From assembly GCA_017609245.1 (NCBI GenBank), contig JAFCEI010000002.1, forward strand, positions 2,639 through 36,211: a DNA stretch of 33,573 nucleotides, in the 5' to 3' direction. Numbering within the stretch: the first letter of the stretch is position 1; the number at the start of each line of letters is the position of its first letter. The position numbers were made by a program, and so were the translations under genes. The DNA is from Candidatus Woesearchaeota archaeon (lineage in GTDB: Archaea > Nanobdellota > Nanobdellia > Woesearchaeales > JAFCFN01). Below are positions 4,258-24,424 of the stretch, in pieces. The notes under the pieces were generated by a model, which was given only the letters and a program-made list of their open reading frames with translations, had not been told where the DNA came from and did no database searches.

Positions 4258-4629
4258 TTATTTTAATCCTTGGTGCATAGGTCCTGTGGGAGTTGTTGTT
4301 TCTGTCAGTTTTCCATCAATGAGCTGTTGGACAACATCTCTTATCTTCCCTTGCCCTTGATAAACCTTTATTCCAAGCTGATTAAAAACATCAAAAGCTC
4401 TTGGCCCGAAATTCACGCTTATGACGGCGTCTGCTTTCTCATTCGCAACAATCTGCGCAGCTGTTATCCCAGCTCCGCCTGCCTGTGCAGCTGCTGTGTT
4501 TTCAACCGCTTTGGCACCTTTTATTCTCTTATCTTCAATTTCTACAATCAAAAAATAAGGGCATCTTCCAAACCTTACATCTACATTATCGTCTAATGTT
4601 TTTCCTGTTGAACTTATTCCGATCTTCAT
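4258..4629 (-). CDS. NifX / NifB-C-terminal-like protein (dinitrogenase FeMo-cofactor-binding domain family, COG1433-like)
   Basis: MKIGISS.G..LDDNVDVRFGRCPYFLIVE......AVEN.AA.QAGGAGI.AAQIV....ADAVI...FGP.A...L...GIKVY is the typical signature of this family. Confidence 0.85.
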   Translation of the reverse strand: MKIGISSTGKTLDDNVDVRFGRCPYFLIVEIEDKRIKGAKAVENTAAAQAGGAGITAAQIVANEKADAVISVNFGPRAFDVFNQLGIKVYQGQGKIRDVVQQLIDGKLTETTTPTGPMHQGLK

Positions 4630-4643
4630 CTTACCTCCATAAC

Positions 4644-4808
4644 TTATTTCTCAATCGCACCTACAGGGCACATGTCAATTGTCTCTTCAATACATTTGGC
4701 TTTAGCATCTTTTATCTTTGCCTTGCCTTCAACAACATCAAATCCTTCTGGACATGCAGCTGCACATGCTCCGCAGCCAATGCATTTGTCTTTGTCTATC
4801 TTTACCAT
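4644..4808 (-). CDS. Small single-cluster [4Fe-4S]/[3Fe-4S] ferredoxin
   Basis: I chose the internal ATG at 4806-4808 because GGAGG (4819-4823) sits 10 nt upstream. Product: MVKIDKDKCIGCGACAAACPEGF....CPVGAIEK. The longer track ORF to 4895 would add an Arg-rich N-terminus read from the neighbouring gene's GC-rich tail in another frame. Confidence 0.8.
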   Translation of the reverse strand: MVKIDKDKCIGCGACAAACPEGFDVVEGKAKIKDAKAKCIEETIDMCPVGAIEK

Positions 4809-4825: not shown

Positions 4826-5167
4826 TTATCCTTTTCTTCCTTGTCCTCCGCCTCTGCCGCCCCCTCTGCCATGGCCAGTACCATCGCCTCCGCACGAGCC
4901 TGGATTTCTATTACGGCCCCCCCCACCACTTCTTCCTTTTCCTCCTCTGCCATCCTTTTCTCCGGCCATAAGAAGATAATCTGCAATGCCTTCATACAGA
5001 TCAGTTGTTTTTCTGTTTAATGTTTCTACTGTTTCTTTGCTTTTTTCATACAAATTGCTTATTTTTTCATGCAGCACATCTCCAATTTGTTCAAGCGCAT
5101 TATTTATTTTATATAAACCTCTTAAATCTTTGATTTGGTAATTTTCAACCAGTTCAGCTATTCCCAT
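4826..5167 (-). CDS. Hypothetical protein: N-terminal helical / coiled-coil region plus a C-terminal Gly/Arg-rich (RGG-like) tail
   Basis: Start at the ATG at 5165-5167, preceded by GGAGG (5174-5178). Product: MGIAELVENYQIKDLRGLYK...EKDGRGGKGRSGGGGRNRNPGSCGGDGTGHGRGGGRGGGQGRKG. I recognise no family. Confidence 0.6.
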   Translation of the reverse strand: MGIAELVENYQIKDLRGLYKINNALEQIGDVLHEKISNLYEKSKETVETLNRKTTDLYEGIADYLLMAGEKDGRGGKGRSGGGGRNRNPGSCGGDGTGHGRGGGRGGGQGRKG

Positions 5168-5270
5168 TTTATCTACCTCCAATATCAAGTTAATGTGCAT
5201 GATCTTTTTTTGTCGGGGCGGGACACTCGCCCTGTTGTGTGCTAGTGGGGAGGTTAAAAATAGCCGAAAG

Positions 5271-6377
5271 CTATTTCCCCCTTCTTGTCATAAAAGAGCC
5301 GCATTCAGGGCATTTCATCTTGAAACAAGGTACTCCTCTCTGATGAGATGCAGTTGCTCCGCAGTTCAGGCAAAAGCATTCCCCTCCTGGACCCAGGGCT
5401 CTTCCGCCCATCCTTCCTCTCCAGCCAAATCTCATGCCAAAAACCCCTTTATAAGCCTCTTCTCTTATCTTATGGCTTTCTATCTGCACAACAACATATT
5501 TGACAGAAGGGATTTCCTCCTGTATCTTTTCCTGCAGTCTTTTTGTTATTGAGGATGCTTCATCTACTTTTAATCCAGGATCAAGACTTATCTTTAGCTC
5601 TGCAAACACAGCTGCTCCTGATCTTTGGGTCTTAAGCTCTGATAGCTTTATGCCTTGTTTTTCAATAACATCCTTTATTTTGTTTTCAATCTCTTCTCCT
5701 GCGCTCACATCAAGCAGGCTGTCTGTTGTTTTCTTTCCCAATGAAACAGATTCAATCAAGATATAGATTCCGATCAACAGGGCCAATACTGCATCAAGAT
5801 GTATCCAGTATCTTGTCAAGAATAGACCGATAAAAACACCAACAGAAGCCAAAACATCGACCCTTGAGTGCTGGCCATCAGCTATCAAAGCCATGCTTTC
5901 ATGCTGTTTTCCTGCTTTTATCTTTATCCTTGCCATCACCTCGTTTACAGCAGCAGAGAAAATCATCACCCCTAACGTTAAGGTTGTTATCAGAACCTCT
6001 TTTGGTGCAAAAAGATTGCTGACCGCTTCATAGATAATCCATAATGAGGTTGCCAAAAGGATGATCGTTATGACCAGGCCGGCAATGACCTCCATCTTAT
6101 AATGGCCGTATGGATGCTCTTTGTCAACCGGCTTTTTTGCTGCCCTAATCCCTGCAAAAGATATTGCTGAAGAAACAATGTCCATTCCTGAATGGACTCC
6201 CTCTGCAATCACTGCAGAGGATCTGCTGATTATTCCTATGGCTATCTTTGACAATGCTAATATAAAATTTGCAATGACTGCAATTATTGATGCCTTTTCT
6301 TTTTCCAATTTATTCACCTTGACTATTATTGCCTGACCATCTGAGCGCCGCACTTGGGGCATCTCTTGCTCATGCAT
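5271..6377 (-). CDS. Cation diffusion facilitator (CDF) metal efflux transporter fused to a C-terminal Gly/Arg linker and a 6-Cys zinc-ribbon module
   Basis: The transmembrane core has CDF motifs ([27 protein letters not shown]) followed by the cytoplasmic CDF C-terminal domain. An extra tail follows: [55 protein letters not shown]. The start is uncertain. The ATG at 6377 overlaps the upstream gene by 52 nt, and a GTG at 6315-6317 or a TTG at 6306-6308 would remove the overlap. Confidence 0.85.
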
Positions 6378-9981: not shown

Positions 9982-10751
9982 TGCTTCTTTTACAAAAACA
10001 GGGATTTCCAGAAGAAGGTGAATTGGTGCTATGCACAATCACAAAAATATATCATAATTCTGTCTTTGCAAATCTTGATGAGTATGGCAAGTCAGGGATG
10101 ATTCATATTTCTGAAATTTCACCAGGGAGGATAAGAAATATCAGGGATTATGTCACCCCAAACAAAAAAGTGGTCTGCAAGGTTCTAAAATTAGACCAGT
10201 CAAAAGGCCATATTGATCTGAGCCTGAGAAGAGTCAACGAAAACCAGAGGAAAAACAAGAACGGCGAGATAAAGCAGCAGCAGATCGCTGAGAAGATAAT
10301 AAAATATGTTGCTCTACAGACAAAACAAGATGAAAAAAAGCTGTGCAACAGCATATACAGCAAGATAAAGGACAAATACACAAGCATTTATTCTATATTT
10401 GAAGAAGCTCTTACAGATGAATCAGTATTAAAAGAGCTAGGGCTTTCAAAAAAAGAGACAGACCTTATATTAGAAACAATAAGGCAAAGAATCAAGCAAA
10501 AAAAGGTGCAGGTAAAGCAAAAGATGATACTCCAAAGCTATGAACCAGACGGAGTAGAGCTCATCAAAAAGATACTGAAAAAGGTCCAGGATGATAAAGC
10601 AAGTATTTCATACGACGGCGGAGGCAAATATACTTTGGCTGTAACAGCAGAAGACTATAAATCAGCAGAAAAAAAGCTTGATGAAAAAACCAATACAATA
10701 GTTGAAGACATGGAAAAGCAGAAAGGTGTTGTCGAACTCATAAAAAGATGA
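9981..10751 (+). CDS. eif2a: Translation initiation factor aIF2 alpha subunit
   Basis: The start at 9981 overlaps the S27e stop as TAATG. The S1 domain reads FPEEGELVLCTITKIYHNSVFANLDEYGKSGMIHISEISPGRIRNIRDYV. The track ORF start at 9897 would overlap S27e by 85 nt and is rejected. Confidence 0.9.
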   Translation: MLLLQKQGFPEEGELVLCTITKIYHNSVFANLDEYGKSGMIHISEISPGRIRNIRDYVTPNKKVVCKVLKLDQSKGHIDLSLRRVNENQRKNKNGEIKQQQIAEKIIKYVALQTKQDEKKLCNSIYSKIKDKYTSIYSIFEEALTDESVLKELGLSKKETDLILETIRQRIKQKKVQVKQKMILQSYEPDGVELIKKILKKVQDDKASISYDGGGKYTLAVTAEDYKSAEKKLDEKTNTIVEDMEKQKGVVELIKR

Positions 10752-10927
10752 AACATGTCCTGAAGTGCACAAATTGCGGGCAGTATACAATGAAAGATGT
10801 TTGCCCAAACTGCAATGAAAAGGCAGTATCTTCAAGGCCTGCAAAGTTCAGTGTGCAGGACAGATATGCAAGATTAAGAAGAGCTGCAAAAAGAGATGAG
10901 CTGACCAAAAAAGGCCTGTTAATATGA
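10748..10927 (+). CDS. nop10: H/ACA ribonucleoprotein subunit Nop10
   Basis: At 59 aa it falls below the ORF-track cutoff: MKHVLKCTNCGQYTMKDVCPNCNEKAVSSRPAKFSVQDRYARLRR. It has the Nop10 zinc ribbon and the P.KFS..D.Y motif. Both ends overlap neighbouring genes as ATGA. Confidence 0.9.
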   Translation: MKHVLKCTNCGQYTMKDVCPNCNEKAVSSRPAKFSVQDRYARLRRAAKRDELTKKGLLI

Positions 10928-11709
10928 ACTCGTGGAAAATAATCAAACTGTTGAAAATAAAGCCAAAATCCCCGATCCTGATAGAAGGGCTGCCAGGAAT
11001 AGGTAATGTCGGGAAGATAGCTGTTGATTTTCTGATAACCGAACTAAAAGCAAAAAAGATATATGAAATATTCTCATATACGTTCCCTCATTCTGTTTTT
11101 GTCAACGAAGATAACCTGGTAGACCTGCCGAAAATAGAGGTCTACTACAAGAAGATGCCGAAAAATGATCTTCTGCTGCTGACAGGAGATATCCAGCCAG
11201 TAGATGAAACAAGCTCTTATGAGTTCTGTGAAAAAATTCTGGACATATTGGGGCAGTACAAAGCAAAAGAGATCATTACTCTGGGCGGGATCGGGCTTGC
11301 AGAAGCTCCAAAAAAGCCAAAAGTGTTCTGCACAGCAAATAACAAGAAAATAATTGAAAAATACAAAAAAGACACAGGGCTTGATAACAAGATATATGGG
11401 GTTGTCGGGCCAATTATCGGTGTTTCAGGATTATTGCTCGGATTATCAGAAAAAAGAAAGATACCTGCAATAACACTGCTGGCAGAAACACTGGGCCATC
11501 CGCTGTACCTGGGCGTCAAAGGGGCAAGAGAGCAGCTGAAAATACTGAACAAGAAGCTTGATTTAAAACTAAACCTGGCCAAGCTAGACAAAGAGATAAA
11601 GGATATAGAACAAGGATTGATAAAAAAGACAAGAGATATTTCTGCTGTATCAAAACAGCTGGCATTCAAGAAACTAGACAAGAAAAAAGAGACCAGCTAT
11701 ATCGGGTAG
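10924..11709 (+). CDS. PAC2-family proteasome assembly chaperone-like protein
   Basis: PILIEGLPGIGNVGKIAVDFLI.ELKAKKI.EI.S..FP is typical of archaeal PAC2/PbaA-like proteins, as is the conserved position after S27e-aIF2a-Nop10. Confidence 0.8.
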   Translation: MNSWKIIKLLKIKPKSPILIEGLPGIGNVGKIAVDFLITELKAKKIYEIFSYTFPHSVFVNEDNLVDLPKIEVYYKKMPKNDLLLLTGDIQPVDETSSYEFCEKILDILGQYKAKEIITLGGIGLAEAPKKPKVFCTANNKKIIEKYKKDTGLDNKIYGVVGPIIGVSGLLLGLSEKRKIPAITLLAETLGHPLYLGVKGAREQLKILNKKLDLKLNLAKLDKEIKDIEQGLIKKTRDISAVSKQLAFKKLDKKKETSYIG

Positions 11710-18407: not shown

Positions 18408-19970
18408 TTATGCTTGTTCAAACAGCTTTATTGCCCTATCTTTAAGCAAGAGTACAAAAGGTGCCAGACGAGGTCCTTTTTCCTTGTTTATAAGCACCTT
18501 ATAAGCTGCTTTAAAGAAATCCTGTGGCATGATATCTGATTCCTGGCTTAATTTATAGAAATATTCATACAGCATGTTCTCATCAAATTTTTGGGTTTTA
18601 AGCTTTTCAGCAAGAGTATGAAGTGCCTTTTTTTCTGTTTCAGAAACTGCTGCATCTACTTTTTCCTGAACCTTAAATTTAAACTCTTCAGGTGCATATT
18701 CATTGACCCAATTCAGTGCCCGTTCAGCCCTTGCCTTAACCCTTTTTGCATCTGAACCTTTTACATCCAGGTCTTTCAGGACCTTTTTCATGTCACCCTC
18801 ATATATCTGCACAAGATTTGTCAGATGCCTAAAAGGAACTTGCAGAGGCATTGTTTTTGCAGGCTTGTCAACACATGAAAGTTCATATATCCTCTTCTGT
18901 TTTTCGCGCTCTTTCTCACCAACATCTTCCTGCCCGTAATATATTCTTTCACACTTGTCAAAATCTTCATATATTTTCAACACGTCCAGGTCAAAGCTTA
19001 TCTCAAACTCTGCTTCTGGCCTTGTTCCTGCAAACATGTGCCGTATGATCTCCGGCTCATATATTCTAAGGGCGTCCTGCAATGTGGTTATTATCCCTGC
19101 TGAGCTTGAAAACTGTTTTCCGCCTTTGATTGCGATCCACTCGTACCTCATCGTTGTCGGCTGGCTGTAGCCATAAATCTTTACAACCAGCTCTTTTGCA
19201 GTGTCAAATGAACCTCCTGCAGCAAAATGATCCTTGCCCCCTGACTCAAAATCAACTTTTTCATGATGCCATCTCATCGGCCAGTCTACTCTCCACAATA
19301 ATTTGATAATTCCTTTTTTCCTTATGTCAAATGTGTTCAGGAAATTACAGTCGCACTTATAGCTGACCTTATACTCGCCATCATATTCTGTTATCTTTGT
19401 TGTGTCTTTTTTGCACTTTTCGCAGAACACAGAAACAGGATACCAATCTTCTGCTAACGGCTCTTTCCTGAATCTGTTGAGGATCTCTTTTATCTCTCTA
19501 GTTTTTAACAATGCAATTTTTATATCTTCAGCATAATCGCATTTCCTGTATTTTTTGCTTTGATAGATATAATCTGGCTTGATGCCGACAGCAGGCAGCG
19601 CTTTTTCGATAGGAGCTTCATTATGCTGAGCATAGCTTTTGTGCTTGCACTTATTTGTGTCAGGCACATCTGTGATAGGCATTCTAAGAAATTTTTTCAA
19701 AAAATCCTGCTTAGGCATGTTTACAGGAACTTTTCTGAATGTATCATAATCATCCCAGGAGTAGATGAATCTTACATTTTTTCCAAGGTCTTTCAAAGCC
19801 CTGTTCACTAGATCAACTGTTATTATTTCTCTAAAATTGCCGATATGGATTGTTCCAGAAGGGGTTATTCCAGCAGCTACAACATATTTCTTCTTGTCAC
19901 CCTTCTCAGCAATGATTCTTTTCGCAGTCTGGTCAGCCCAGTGCATCACCTTATTCTTTTTTTCTGCCAT
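18408..19970 (-). CDS. lysK: Lysyl-tRNA synthetase, class I
   Basis: MHWADQTAKRI...YVVAAGITPSGTIHIGNFREI (HIGH-type motif), with the length and pattern of class I archaeal LysRS. Confidence 0.93.
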   Translation of the reverse strand: MAEKKNKVMHWADQTAKRIIAEKGDKKKYVVAAGITPSGTIHIGNFREIITVDLVNRALKDLGKNVRFIYSWDDYDTFRKVPVNMPKQDFLKKFLRMPITDVPDTNKCKHKSYAQHNEAPIEKALPAVGIKPDYIYQSKKYRKCDYAEDIKIALLKTREIKEILNRFRKEPLAEDWYPVSVFCEKCKKDTTKITEYDGEYKVSYKCDCNFLNTFDIRKKGIIKLLWRVDWPMRWHHEKVDFESGGKDHFAAGGSFDTAKELVVKIYGYSQPTTMRYEWIAIKGGKQFSSSAGIITTLQDALRIYEPEIIRHMFAGTRPEAEFEISFDLDVLKIYEDFDKCERIYYGQEDVGEKEREKQKRIYELSCVDKPAKTMPLQVPFRHLTNLVQIYEGDMKKVLKDLDVKGSDAKRVKARAERALNWVNEYAPEEFKFKVQEKVDAAVSETEKKALHTLAEKLKTQKFDENMLYEYFYKLSQESDIMPQDFFKAAYKVLINKEKGPRLAPFVLLLKDRAIKLFEQA

Positions 19971-20039
19971 GATATTTCAAATTTTTTATCATTTAAATAA
20001 ATATGGGCTCTACGGGGTTCGAACCCGCGACCTTTCGGT

Positions 20040-20055
20040 TTCTTTGGATCTAGCT
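20040..20055 (-). other. tRNA intron at the canonical 37/38 position (16 nt, boundary +/-1 nt)
   Basis: 23 nt lie between the anticodon stem halves where 7 are expected. Removing AGCTAGATCCAAAGAA restores the loop CTCTTAA. Confidence 0.75.
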
Positions 20056-20070
20056 TAAGAGCCGAATGCT

Positions 20071-20090
20071 TTTGGCAAGTTTTTGACTTT
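20071..20090 (-). other. Non-canonical tRNA intron in the 3' strand of the D-stem (about position 22/23; 20 nt, boundary +/-1 nt)
   Basis: Removing AAAGTCAAAAACTTGCCAAA restores D-stem GCTC/GAGC. The surrounding sequence reads as a bulge-helix-bulge: TGGT|AGA|AAGT-CAAAA-ACTT|GCCA|AAA. Confidence 0.75.
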
Positions 20091-20118
20091 CTACCAGGCT
20101 GAGCTAAGAGCCCACATC

Positions 20119-20692
20119 TTAAAAAGAATTAACGCCGTTTAAATATCTTTCCATATGATATTGATTGTTTGGCTTGACTATTTGTATAAATTTTTTTATT
20201 TCTTTTTGATCTGCAGATAAATATCCCATCGAGTGTTGCTTGTCCCAGGCATTCTGTGGCTTTGGTGTGCCTCTTTCACAATTCTTTTCTTTGCAGTTCT
20301 GTCTGAGCATTTCAATTCTAAAATAATTAGATTTATGTTTTCTTTTTTAGCCAATCGATAAAACATTTTTCTTGAGGGAATCATATCAAAACAAGTATCA
20401 AGGAATACAAATTTGGCTCTTTTCAATATTTTTTGATCTCCATTATCTTCGCTTCATGGTGTTCCAATCTTTTTTTGGCCTGTTTTCTTGGTGAAAGATG
20501 AATGAAGTCTGAGTGGTACTTCTCAATATATTTTTTAGCAAACAAATCAGAGTCAAAATAAATGCAGTTTTTCAGCTTTTTCTTAAGAATTCTGCATGTA
20601 TAACTCTTGCCAACCCCTGGCAGTCCTCCAATAATAATTAAAGTTGGTTTAGATGAATCAAATTTAAGATATCTTTTAGTGAATAAACCCAT
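20119..20692 (-). pseudogene. P-loop NTPase / small-molecule-kinase-like gene (AAA_33 / zeta-toxin-like fold) broken by two frameshifts
   Basis: Track ORFs 20423..20692 (Walker A IIIGGLPGVGKSY), 20196..20426 (AKFVFLDTCF, Walker-B-like; LELKCSDRTAKKRI) and the tail of 20119..20310 (EIKKFIQIV...) read as one protein of about 190 aa across three frames. The shifts fall at TATTGAAA (about 20424) and the run CAAAAAG (about 20203-20209). Confidence 0.7.
20138..20146 (-). promoter_or_regulatory. Putative TATA box for the tRNA-Lys gene
   Basis: Minus-strand ATATTTAAA has its proximal edge 25 nt upstream of the tRNA 5' G (20113). It lies inside the 3' end of the frameshifted kinase gene. Confidence 0.45.
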
Positions 20693-21068: not shown

Positions 21069-21941
21069 TTATGATTTAGAGGGAATCTTAAGCTTATGGC
21101 CTGAAGGAAGCTTGTTCTTGTCTACCAGGATATTATTATACATGATCTCGTCAACAGAAGTGTCGAATCTGTTTGCTATCATCGCAAGCGTATCGCCTCT
21201 TTTAACTACATATTCGATGGTGTTGACTTTTTCAGGCTTTATGCGAACTCCCCTATGATTCCTGCTGTCAAGGATGTTCACGATTGCGTAGATCTGAGCA
21301 ACATATCTCCAGGTCTCTGGAGGCAACTTGTTTTTTGGAACCTCCCAGAAACTTCCATATTTTTTTGCCAATCTTTCAACATTTTTAGGCCCCCAATTAT
21401 ATGCTGCAAGCCCAAAATCAATCGAACCGAATTTTTTTGACAGATAAGCCAGGTGATTCAATGCAGGACCGATAGTTCTTACAGGATCAAAAGTTTCATT
21501 AACATAATCATTTATTTCAAGATCAAAATAATCTGTTGCAAGCTCTTCTTCAAACTGATAAGGGCCTGTGCAGTTTGAATTCGGATTCACAGCTCTTGCA
21601 TAACCCTCGCTTTCCACAAACTCAAGACCAAGAACAAGATTTTTCAGATCCTCATAATCATAGCCAAACTGCTCAAAATCAGCAACATAATCTTCTAGAG
21701 TAGAAACATAATCATCCAGTCTGCCAAATATCCTGTTCAATCCTGACCTGCCATTTGATCCTTTTGTCAAGAATCTGCCATCTTTTTCTCTTTTTATGTA
21801 TAAATCCATCTCACTGATGATCCTTTCAACTTTCACTGCCTCAACTGGATCAATTTCAGGATAAAATGATTCAGCAAACAAACCATGCGAAGCTAGAAAA
21901 GTCATCCCTCCAAGTACTAAATGTTTAAGCTTAACCCCCAT
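21069..21941 (-). CDS. Secreted/membrane-anchored lytic transglycosylase (SLT domain) with a C-terminal LysM domain
   Basis: The hydrophobic N-terminus is LVLGGMTFLASHGLFA. The SLT-like core reads VESEGYARAVNPNSNCTGPYQF...AAYNWGPKNV. The LysM domain reads YVVKRGDTLAMIANRFDTSVDEIMYNN......LPSGHKLKIP. Confidence 0.8.
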   Translation of the reverse strand: MGVKLKHLVLGGMTFLASHGLFAESFYPEIDPVEAVKVERIISEMDLYIKREKDGRFLTKGSNGRSGLNRIFGRLDDYVSTLEDYVADFEQFGYDYEDLKNLVLGLEFVESEGYARAVNPNSNCTGPYQFEEELATDYFDLEINDYVNETFDPVRTIGPALNHLAYLSKKFGSIDFGLAAYNWGPKNVERLAKKYGSFWEVPKNKLPPETWRYVAQIYAIVNILDSRNHRGVRIKPEKVNTIEYVVKRGDTLAMIANRFDTSVDEIMYNNILVDKNKLPSGHKLKIPSKS

Positions 21942-21980: not shown

Positions 21981-23036
21981 CTAAAACCTCGGCAGATACT
22001 TTGGCCTTTTCAGGCCAGGAATATCTTTCAGAAGATCAACATGCTTCAGCCCGATCTTTCCATAATATAATTTTTTCAGGTCACCGCCCTGTTCAAGCCA
22101 TTTTTTCAGCTCATAATAACCTTGCAGGTAAACATGATCCTTTATCATGCCCCCTGGCTTAGAAGTGTCAGCAACACCTCTTTTTGCGCGCACTGCAAGC
22201 TTAAATGCAGCTTTTTTTGCAAAATATTTTTTTAGATGTTTATAGATGTCAGAAAAAGAGCCTTTCAGAGCCATGTCAACAGCAACAACTCTTGCTGCAT
22301 AATTTCGCAATACCCTATTTGTCATAAGGCCATTCAGATCCTCGTTCAGCACAGCCAACCCTTCCTCTGTCTTCAGATAAGCTGGCAAGCCGATCATGAA
22401 TAATTGGTATGGCTGTTTTCTCCCGTTTTCTGCCCTCAGAACATGCGTGCCTATCTCATGTATTATCAATCGTTTAACAAAGGTTTTTGAAAAAACATCA
22501 TTTTTTCTTACAAGAAGTGTTTTCTTGCTCTGCAGGACATTTGCTGCAGTAGCTATTGACTCTTCCTTGACAATCCAGTTAAAGCCGCATTTTTTAAATG
22601 CTCTTCTCAGCTGGCTGACGACCATTGAGCTGGGCACGATCTTTCTCTCTTTCTCAACCTTTAATTTCAGCAACTCCTTTGCCTTTGCAACTAACTCCTC
22701 ATCAGGAACACCATATAACTTGACAGAGATATCACTAAAATCCTTCTTGCCCCTGTTCTTGATCAAAAGGCATTTCTTGATAATGACCTGCTTTTTCTGC
22801 CGAAATAGATTTTCAATCACAGAATCACCTGTTATCTTAAGATTATTCAGTCTTTTGATCATATAATCCAGGTCAAACTTAAACTCAGAATACTGAAACT
22901 GCGGGTTATAGTTAGGATTTGCAAGAACCTTCTCCATCTCCTCTTCAACATTTGCAGGATTGATGGCCAAAAATGAGACCTGTTTTGCGATTTCTGCAAG
23001 CTCTTTATCGATCTTCTGCAGCTTAGTCAGTCTCAT
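21981..23036 (-). CDS. DUF1704 / MATCAP-like metallocarboxypeptidase family protein (QEGLA-motif family)
   Basis: IIHEIGTHVLRAENG is an atypical HExxxH motif. TEEGLAVLNE is the QEGLA-type motif. RAKRGV.DTS.PG...KD.VYL is also present. Confidence 0.75.
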   Translation of the reverse strand: MRLTKLQKIDKELAEIAKQVSFLAINPANVEEEMEKVLANPNYNPQFQYSEFKFDLDYMIKRLNNLKITGDSVIENLFRQKKQVIIKKCLLIKNRGKKDFSDISVKLYGVPDEELVAKAKELLKLKVEKERKIVPSSMVVSQLRRAFKKCGFNWIVKEESIATAANVLQSKKTLLVRKNDVFSKTFVKRLIIHEIGTHVLRAENGRKQPYQLFMIGLPAYLKTEEGLAVLNEDLNGLMTNRVLRNYAARVVAVDMALKGSFSDIYKHLKKYFAKKAAFKLAVRAKRGVADTSKPGGMIKDHVYLQGYYELKKWLEQGGDLKKLYYGKIGLKHVDLLKDIPGLKRPKYLPRF

Positions 23037-23503: not shown

Positions 23504-24424
23504 ATGGAAAAAGACACACAAGAAGCTATTTTAAAAGCCAGCATGAACCATACTTTGCTACACAATCCTCCTAAAACATCCAGATTAAAGCTAAAGCATA
23601 CTGTCCCAGTTATCATGGCCTTGACATTCTGGGCAGCATTGAACTACACTAAATACAAAATAGACAGATATGCATATCCTATTATAAAAAATTGTTCAGC
23701 ACTAGAACAGATAATCGAGCCAGAGGCAAAAAAATATATGCACTATATCTTAGATGCATGTGAAAAAAACAAAGAGACATACCCTGTTGACCCTGCTTTA
23801 TTCATGTCACTGATCAAAGCAGAATCTGAATTTAAGCAGTTTGCCATATCATCAGTAGGTGCAGCAGGCTTGTGCCAACTCATGCCATCTACAGCTCAGG
23901 GATTTGGCCTGGATGTTTATCTGCCTGAATATTTTGAAAAAGCAAAAGAAATAAGGTCTCTGGCAGTAAAAGAAAATAGCCTGGCCCACAAATATCTGGA
24001 TAAGAACTGGTTTGAGAGCGCAAAAAAACACGAATTGATTGCAGACAGATATTTCAAAGAATCATCAAAGCTTTTTGAAAAATATATCAATGAGCTCAAA
24101 ACCAAGCATAAAGAAGATGAAAGGTTTGACCCTCAAAAAGCAATCCCTGTTGGCGTCCTGATACTGGCCAGCAACCTAAAAGAAAGAAAAGGAGACATAA
24201 GGGAAGGGACCTCAGGGTATAATGCAGGCATGGCAGCAGTCAGAAGGCATAACGGAATTCCCCCTTATGATGAAACAGTGCCTTACCAGAACAAGATATA
24301 CAATTACTATAAAGAGTATATAACAAAATATTTAAAAACAAAGCAAGATAATACTATTTCTAATGAAGATATTAACCTTACACTCAGACTTCATCGTAAT
24401 AGAACCAAAGAAAAAGGCAATTAA
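23504..24424 (+). CDS. Membrane-anchored lytic transglycosylase (SLT domain, family 1)
   Basis: The N-terminal TM segment is VPVIMALTFWAALNY. Canonical SLT motifs: LIKAESEFKQFAISSVGAAGLCQLMPSTA, SGYNAGMAAV, Y.NKI. Confidence 0.85.
   Translation: MEKDTQEAILKASMNHTLLHNPPKTSRLKLKHTVPVIMALTFWAALNYTKYKIDRYAYPIIKNCSALEQIIEPEAKKYMHYILDACEKNKETYPVDPALFMSLIKAESEFKQFAISSVGAAGLCQLMPSTAQGFGLDVYLPEYFEKAKEIRSLAVKENSLAHKYLDKNWFESAKKHELIADRYFKESSKLFEKYINELKTKHKEDERFDPQKAIPVGVLILASNLKERKGDIREGTSGYNAGMAAVRRHNGIPPYDETVPYQNKIYNYYKEYITKYLKTKQDNTISNEDINLTLRLHRNRTKEKGN

Follow-up and report, generated by a model that had tools for sequence, protein, structure and literature searches.

Can a tRNA gene that is interrupted twice, once within a strand of its D-stem, still give rise to a functional tRNA? 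This question is raised by a 110-nucleotide (nt) segment on the reverse strand of contig JAFCEI010000002.1 from the Candidatus Woesearchaeota archaeon assembly GCA_017609245.1. We analyzed positions 2,639 to 36,211 of this contig; that whole stretch of 33,573 nt is called the window here, and all coordinates refer to it. The segment (20004-20113) reads as a gene for tRNA-Lys(CUU) with a canonical intron at the 37/38 site and a non-canonical intron in the D-stem, each with a motif of the bulge-helix-bulge (BHB) kind. This identification is supported by the results of Rfam and ARAGORN, by covariation among 54 related genes, and by a series of intron-containing and intron-free tRNA-Leu genes in Woesearchaeota. 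Very probably, this tRNA-Lys(CUU) gene is functional, belongs to a Woesearchaeota-like DPANN archaeon, and contains two introns of the protein-spliced BHB type.

The whole segment is matched by the Rfam tRNA covariance model (RF00005; 44.5 bits, E 1.7e-6), and the alignment shows inserts of 26 nt in the D-loop and 18 nt in the anticodon loop. ARAGORN in its default mode calls no tRNA in the raw 110 nt. Once precursor nt 24-43 (20090-20071) are deleted, ARAGORN recognizes tRNA-Lys(CUU) and treats the 16 nt that follow position 37, AGCTAGATCCAAAGAA, as an intron, and when both insertions are deleted it reports a 74-nt standard cloverleaf with four intact arms; deleting the anticodon insertion alone yields no sensible tRNA. 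The initial annotation of this DNA had proposed that the segment becomes a standard cloverleaf only after removal of 16 nt at the canonical 37/38 site and of 20 nt at G22|A23 in the D-stem. Its coordinates proved exact, and removal of the D-stem insertion is both needed and sufficient for the tRNA-Lys(CUU) call. It had also suggested examining the region with covariance-model tools and ARAGORN; neither yields a fold with one long intron, nor does the gene appear degenerate.

All parts of the gene lie on the reverse strand. Exon 1 (20091-20113, tRNA positions 1-22) holds the 5' acceptor strand GGGCUCU, U8 and A9, the 5' D-stem strand GCUC, the D-loop AGCCUGGUA, and G22. The 20-nt D-arm intron, AAAGUCAAAAACUUGCCAAA (20071-20090), comes next and separates G22 from A23 within the 3' D-stem strand, as located by ARAGORN and by comparison with related genes. 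Exon 2 (20056-20070, positions 23-37) contributes the D-stem bases AGC, A26, UUCGG, and the loop bases C32 U33 C34 U35 U36 A37, with the anticodon CUU at 20059-20057. The 16-nt canonical intron, AGCUAGAUCCAAAGAA (20040-20055), is placed by ARAGORN, by a constrained fold, and by the canonical introns of relatives, and it separates exon 2 from exon 3 (20004-20039, positions 38-73), which consists of A38, CCGAA, the variable loop AGGUC, the T-arm, AGAGCCC, and A73. The exons and the anticodon are recognized by both Rfam and ARAGORN. Once spliced, the cloverleaf has the acceptor stem GGGCUCU/AGAGCCC, the D-stem GCUC/GAGC, the anticodon stem UUCGG/CCGAA, and the T-arm GCGGG-UUCGAAC-CCCGU; CCA is not encoded. 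The ARAGORN structure includes the hallmarks of tRNA-Lys(CUU), namely CUU within the 7-nt loop CUCUUAA with U33 and A37, G18G19, the T-loop UUCGAAC, and the discriminator A73. The exons closely resemble the intron-less tRNA-Lys(CUU) genes at two Woesearchaeota loci among those that we compared (L009 and L068). Upstream of the gene, a B recognition element (BRE)-like sequence, GGAAAG (20152-20147), is followed by a TATA-like sequence, ATATTTAAA (20146-20138), whose center is about 29 nt from tRNA position 1. Judged by the established geometry of archaeal BRE/TATA elements, the sequence at 20138-20152 is a putative promoter belonging to the tRNA gene itself.

Around the D-arm intron the RNA reads UGGU (precursor nt 18-21) / AGA / AAGU-CAAAA-ACUU / GCCA (precursor nt 38-41) / AAA. 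The exonic strand UGGU (U17a, G18, G19, and U20; 20093-20096) pairs with GCCA at intron nt 15-18 (20073-20076) through U:A, G:C, G:C, and U:G pairs; 3-nt bulges, AG|A (20092-20090) after UGGU and AA|A (20072-20070) after GCCA, lie on opposite strands; and a hairpin of 4 base pairs (bp) within the intron (20077-20089) forms the intron-side helix, h'. The motif is thus exactly as the initial annotation had read it. In BHB geometry the cut falls after the second bulge nucleotide, and for an intron at the canonical site the central helix includes the first two bases of the anticodon (PMC4090602). With both bulges of the D-arm motif cut at that point, ...GGUAG is joined to AGC... and the pair C13:G22 becomes complete, in agreement with the junction previously predicted for the D-stem GCUC/GAGC. 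A boundary at 23/24 would be equivalent in sequence, and BHB geometry selects 22/23. One refinement concerns the class of the motif. Because the outer helix, h, has only the C17:G45 pair (precursor numbering), the next pair being C.C, the motif falls short of a full hBHBh' and belongs to the relaxed HBh' type.

The central helix of the D-arm motif is seen in the unconstrained minimum free energy (MFE) fold and in a fold with the acceptor, T, and anticodon stems enforced, and in both A22:U37 competes with A25:U37. When the intron was shuffled, a 4/4 central helix together with a hairpin of at least 4 bp appeared in 7e-5 of trials, and a 4/4 helix alone in 5.7%.

The BHB at the 37/38 intron is, as first noted, less regular. 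In the canonical register the central helix CUCU:AAAG has three of four pairs (C32:G, U33:A, and U35:A, with a C34.A mismatch), the bulges are UA|A and AA|A, the motif is stacked on the 5-bp anticodon stem, and the intron-side helix has at most 1 bp. Shifting the register by one gives UCUU:AAGA, a perfect helix. Since both junctions fall in runs of A, the two registers lead to an identical mature sequence. This BHB is relaxed, hBH/BHL-like. Strict alpha4 and alpha'2 EndA enzymes have as their substrate a strict hBHBh' motif, in which h and h' each have at least 2 bp around a perfect 3-4-3 core; neither intron has this form. Relatives with a CUU anticodon carry, opposite C32-U35, either AGAG, which pairs perfectly, or AAAG/GAAG, with the same C.A mismatch. 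The mismatch occurs also in the CUU genes of L094, L100, and L085, and AAAG is the perfect partner in relatives with a UUU anticodon (L139 and L190). There is a hint here that CUU genes with the C34.A mismatch may have derived from UUU isoacceptors via U34->C.

We asked how widely such introns occur by scanning metagenomes with the pattern TAGCTCAGNNNGGTAG-N{10,40}-AGCNNNNNNCTYTTA, in which exon bases alone are constrained and an insertion is required, so that the GCCA strand was left free. At least 120 matches were found, 105 of them unique, including the window's own; among the 105 unique matches listed, 103 are tRNA-Lys genes and 2-3 are spurious. The intron register of each gene was chosen among those that give the same mature sequence. 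Among the matches listed, 55 genes share the 22/23 register of the window and 48 of these have a perfect 4-bp helix; leaving aside the window, there are 54 distinct 22/23 genes, 47 with a perfect helix. In this class the exon supplies the top strand, NGGU, and the bottom strand consists of intron bases that the pattern left free. The helix AGGU:GCCU is the most frequent (n=22), followed by the window's UGGU:GCCA (n=14), UGGU:ACCA (n=3), UGGU:AUCA (n=3), AGGU:ACCU (n=2), and CGGU:GCCG (n=1).

Pairs were counted in a gap-free junction alignment of 49 distinct 22/23 sequences. The central helix is paired in 96.4% of cases, and its variable first pair is A:U in 21 sequences, U:A in 21, U:G in 3, C:G in 1, and another combination in 3. 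The intron hairpin h' is 81% paired, and each of its four pairs shows changes on both sides. In the outer helix a single real pair, C/U:G, is present in 43 of the 49 sequences; a second pair forms in 3. The covariation score is 0.449, compared with 0.173 +/- 0.014 for shuffled alignments, and none of 500 shuffles reaches it; when the partner strand is slid by 1-3 columns, pairing falls to 32-51%. Across the 54 metagenomic members, intron length ranges from 13 to 37 nt, the anticodon is CUU in 42 and UUU in 12, and 27 genes have the D-arm intron alone while 26 have further insertions. Their contigs have guanine-plus-cytosine (GC) contents of 30-60% and share no genes with the window. Because lengths, isoacceptors, and contigs vary while the BHB is kept, selection appears to act on the motif and not on the intron sequence. 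This pattern would be expected if a splicing endonuclease selects on the motif.

The same scan returned a second class, in which the intron lies two nucleotides upstream, in the 20/21 register. Among the matches listed, it comprises 47 genes, 43 with perfect helices. These are D-loop introns of tRNA-Lys(UUU) at loci L082-L201 (for example, L088, L096, L109, L093, and L116), mostly on GC-rich contigs, with the central helix CUAG:CUAG or, alternatively, CCAG:CUGG or UCCG:CGGA. Genes of the 20/21 class usually have a T-loop intron as well, inside GGTTCGAA|...|TCCCC, and some also have a 37/38 intron, for a total of three.

Closer relatives of the host provide examples in which the junctions are set by intron-free orthologs. 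In named Woesearchaeota metagenome-assembled genomes (MAGs), a tRNA-Leu(UAG) gene located downstream of the lysyl-tRNA synthetase gene lysK, on the reverse strand, has zero, one, or two to three introns at sites in the D-loop, at 30/31, and at 37/38, forming a presence/absence series with exact junctions when the intron-free form is taken as the reference. The gene of L059 (5299-5382) has no introns and that of L029 (1739-1842) has a 20-nt D-loop intron. D-loop and 37/38 introns occur together in L012, L016, and L072, D-loop and 30/31 introns in L040 (~5249-5382), and 30/31 and 37/38 introns in L037 (~5066-5221) and L042 (~4574-4718). Every non-canonical intron in this series is of the HBh' type, with a 4/4 central helix, 3-nt bulges, an h' of at least 4 bp, and an h of 0-1 bp, and the 37/38 introns have 3/4 helices. 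Since the series contains both, relaxed HBh' motifs and slightly imperfect canonical introns are normal in this lineage. In two of the MAG loci, at ~4700-4800 of L012 and ~4550-4650 of L072 (both on the reverse strand), we noticed sequence that could be an att-site duplication from an integrating element or one half of a split tRNA.

How, then, would the precursor be processed? Transcription from the gene's own BRE/TATA promoter would produce a precursor of about 110 nt. In this RNA, U17a-G18-G19-U20 would form a helix with the GCCA located toward the 3' end of the 20-nt intron, leaving the bulges AG|A and AA|A, and the 4-bp hairpin would cap this helix within the intron. EndA would cleave either bulge behind its second nucleotide, which would produce 2',3'-cyclic phosphate and 5'-OH ends, and an RtcB-type ligase would join G22 to A23 and thereby complete the D-stem GCUC/GAGC. 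The 16-nt intron after A37 would be removed likewise, from the relaxed BHB that stacks on the anticodon stem; this order of removal is presumed. RNase P, 3' trimming, and CCA addition would finish the tRNA. These steps are those of the established archaeal pathway (PMC4090602).

Several observations weigh against a functional, twice-spliced gene. The locus was found in none of the RNA runs searched. No EndA or RtcB gene was detected in the 33.6-kb window by Pfam or, for EndA, by tblastn with an M. jannaschii EndA sequence. Both introns are relaxed substrates, the D-arm motif with its outer helix of 1 bp and the anticodon-loop motif with its C.A mismatch. Left unconstrained, the precursor has an MFE structure (-33 kcal/mol, z -1.9) that is misfolded, with the D-arm paired to anticodon-arm bases, and by nearest-neighbor rules the conformer that combines the cloverleaf with the BHB is 3-9 kcal/mol less stable. 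Finally, a second, intron-free tRNA-Lys(CUU) may exist elsewhere in the genome. An alternative fold, or a single long intron, was considered and rejected: the MFE structure fits no tRNA, and the D-region helix returns once the acceptor, T, and anticodon stems are enforced.

One set of RNA sequences was examined as a possible spliced form. Short contigs from three marine metatranscriptomes, which align to a relative, L131, join a 5' part ending in GGTAG directly to exon 2. We rejected them as evidence of splicing because their 5' exon, GGGTCGGTAGCTCAGCTGGTAG, differs from that of L131; it fits an intron-less, bacterial-type tRNA-Lys.

The initial annotation had gone on to propose that this lineage needs a broad-specificity EndA. 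This is plausible and agrees with the link described for DPANN archaea between alpha4 EndA with an L3 loop and greater disruption of tRNA genes (PMC5829648); such a need is reasonable because the D-arm motif has a 1-bp outer helix and the canonical motif a mismatched central helix. A tblastn search with the M. jannaschii EndA over 1.46 Mb of collected loci gave a single matching locus, L118, an unrelated 394-kb hot-spring contig that also carries a tRNA-Lys of the 20/21 class. Two tandem EndA-like units lie there at 10232-11287 on the reverse strand, with 31-33% identity to the query (E 1e-22 and 2e-19). They may represent either a two-unit fused enzyme or adjacent subunit genes.

Could the insertions be marks of decay or remnants of mobile elements in a degenerate tRNA gene, with an intact tRNA-Lys(CUU) elsewhere doing the work? 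Such a pseudogene might be expected to go uncalled by ARAGORN, as the raw sequence does, and to score low with Rfam, where the 44.5 bits compare with 66-70 bits for intron-less relatives; a zeta-toxin-like fragment also lies upstream of the tRNA. The lower score, however, is the expected cost of two unmodeled insertions, and decay would hardly leave three intact exons that form a perfect cloverleaf with all conserved tertiary positions. It would also have to account for a precise BHB in the insertion whose cleavage yields the exact junction needed, for the same site and motif, covarying, in 54 other distinct genes, and for the promoter-like BRE/TATA sequence. We therefore regard a pseudogene as improbable.

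A different possibility is that splicing is limited to the 37/38 intron and that the mature tRNA retains the 20-nt D-arm insertion, which would give it a larger D-loop. Rfam does model the extra bases in this way, as a 26-nt loop insert above a D-stem GCUC/AAGC, and DPANN tRNAs with non-canonical D-arms exist, such as the tRNA-Pro of ARMAN-2 with a single-pair D-arm (PMC3239211). In the unspliced form, however, the D-stem would contain a C13.A mismatch and G18G19 would be sequestered in a helix. A 4-bp helix with two 3-nt bulges at a fixed spacing, kept among introns of 13-37 nt that are otherwise unrelated in sequence, carries the signature of recognition by EndA rather than that of a structural extension of the D-loop, and in the tRNA-Leu series intron-free orthologs set the same junctions. 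A retained insert is thus very unlikely. That the insertion is an assembly error or chimera is barely credible. The contig does come from a metagenome assembly of a low-coverage organism (2-3x word depth in sequencing run X1), but the same contig is found in two samples, and independent Logan DNA contigs of run X1, spanning 19931-20081 and 20068-20226, show 0 mismatches to the locus, the second having a 1-nt gap at 20191, upstream of the tRNA. Nor would an artifact yield a covarying BHB common to dozens of other assemblies.

Runs X1-X3 contain other tRNA genes with similar exons and D-regions of differing lengths, and no intron-less allele was found in these runs. A contig of run X2 that aligns to 20060-20106 represents a related tRNA gene from the same environment, with identical exon flanks and a D-arm intron that is 7 nt shorter (13 nt); here the intron region varies and the exons are constant. 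The contig containing the window has been found in hydrothermal and sediment metagenomes.

The host is a Woesearchaeota-like DPANN archaeon, since the best relatives of its lysyl-tRNA synthetase (LysRS) are nearly all from Woesearchaeota, Nanoarchaeota, or Nanoarchaeia MAGs. This holds for the best ~60 matches, and the protein is at most 62% identical to that of any species representative. The enzyme is a class I LysRS encoded by lysK (18408-19970, reverse strand; Pfam PF01921, E 2.9e-126), whose start codon comes 33 nt after the end of the tRNA-Lys gene in the same orientation, so that the cognate tRNA and synthetase are adjacent (18408-20113). A TATA-like sequence, TTATTTAAAT (20000-19991), lies about 25 nt before the lysK ATG, which suggests that the lysK mRNA may be leaderless, with a promoter overlapping the tRNA trailer. 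The adjacency of tRNA-Lys and lysK is not conserved among 80 related LysRS loci; only L009 and L068 have an intron-less tRNA-Lys(CUU) 1.2-1.9 kb upstream of lysK, and most relatives have none there. No orthologous locus was found among the relatives, and the metagenomic loci with D-arm introns have no genes in common with the window.

Other genes in the window, as assigned by Pfam, encode aIF2-alpha, a threonyl-tRNA synthetase with an archaeal editing domain, PTH2, PAC2, SRP54, and proteins resembling SLT/LysM lytic transglycosylases; the GC content is 37-43%. Two SLT-domain proteins, one with LysM, flank a MATCAP-family metallopeptidase-like gene (21069-21941, 21981-23036, and 23504-24424). 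Functions that degrade bacterial cell walls are typical of host-dependent DPANN archaea. The zeta-toxin-like sequence, 310 nt upstream of the tRNA, is an open reading frame of 89 amino acids (79 according to JGI) at 20423-20692 on the reverse strand; it matches only the N-terminal P-loop part of zeta toxin and AAA_18 kinases and may be a gene fragment. An Rfam scan of the whole window gave no further RNA-family match even at E<=1, and its intergenic DNA contains no T-arm-like motif that would indicate another hidden tRNA.

Multiple and non-canonical BHB introns have been documented in Thermoproteales, Thaumarchaeota, and ARMAN-2 (PMC4090602, PMC3239211, PMC8450103). The initial annotation had described them as known mainly from Thermoproteales and some ultrasmall archaea, which is correct and slightly dated, as Thaumarchaeota, several DPANN lineages, and Asgard archaea are now included (PMC8450103, PMC5829648). 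For example, tRNA-Pro(UGG) of Pyrobaculum islandicum is interrupted at 25/26, 37/38, and 56/57 (Marck & Grosjean 2003; Sugahara et al.; reviewed in PMC4090602), and tRNAscan-SE 2.0 identified 673 non-canonical introns in 217 archaeal genomes (PMC8450103). Like the tRNAs of Thermoproteales and Thaumarchaeota, the gene described here has short protein-spliced introns outside 37/38, in those groups often beside a canonical one, whose removal restores the cloverleaf and whose splice sites lie in a motif of 3-nt bulge, 4-bp helix, and 3-nt bulge or in relaxed HBh' and hBH forms. Unlike those cases, the host belongs to DPANN and not to TACK, the site is G22|A23, and the central helix is formed with G18G19 of the D-loop.

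Within DPANN, ARMAN-2 (Ca. Micrarchaeum) has disrupted tRNA genes and an epsilon2 EndA (Fujishima et al. 2011, PMC3239211; Hirata et al. 2012, PMC3488258) that was shown experimentally to cut relaxed motifs (PMC3239211, PMC3488258). The introns described there are in the T-loop (53/54 and 59/60), in contrast to the D-arm here, and the EndA of the window's lineage is expected to be an alpha4 enzyme with an L3 loop (PMC5829648) in contrast to the epsilon2 form. Kaneta et al. (2018) found alpha4 EndA with an L3 loop in several DPANN lineages, associated with increased disruption of tRNA genes; among the genomes studied is that of Ca. Woesearchaeota archaeon RBG_13_36_6, and they report both single non-canonical and multiple introns in DPANN tRNA sets, some of which are incomplete for lack of manual curation (PMC5829648). 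That study concerns the same superphylum and probably the same phylum, and gives proportions per genome where we describe specific instances, namely this locus and the 22/23 family. A likeness also exists to a eukaryotic nuclear tRNA gene with introns in the D-arm and anticodon loop, both of the BHB type, although that gene is processed by the heterotetrameric Sen complex and is unrelated to the window's gene by descent.

The two-intron tRNA-Lys therefore belongs to a well-described class of archaeal tRNA introns. It reveals no new mechanism; multiple and non-canonical introns in DPANN archaea and their link to alpha4/L3 EndA have already been published. The analysis adds that, among environmental archaea, the D-arm introns of tRNA-Lys at 22/23 make up a large family with covariation. 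For genome annotation, tRNA finders in standard bacterial mode miss this tRNA-Lys(CUU) gene entirely, and without archaeal tools that allow for introns DPANN genomes would therefore seem to have no tRNA-Lys(CUU); Kaneta et al. (2018) name this as a reason for the frequent gaps in DPANN tRNA sets. The locus and the roughly 100 related genes also make up a compact set of substrates supported by covariation, with D-arm HBh' motifs at 22/23 and 20/21, for the specificity of the DPANN alpha4/L3 endonuclease.

We speculate, as an unlikely yet consequential reading, that the 22/23 intron is an old, vertically kept family spanning many archaeal lineages and not a recent, sporadic, "translocatable" insertion. 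The reasons for this reading are that the contigs range from 30 to 60% GC, that both CUU and UUU isoacceptors are represented, and that the central helix is always formed through G18G19; the sister 20/21 family, on GC-rich, TACK-like contigs, may be cited alongside. If the family were indeed old, its introns would have been kept for a function, such as gating the folding or modification of the D-arm or guarding the gene against integrating elements, and the view that 37/38 introns are the sole ancient ones would be challenged.

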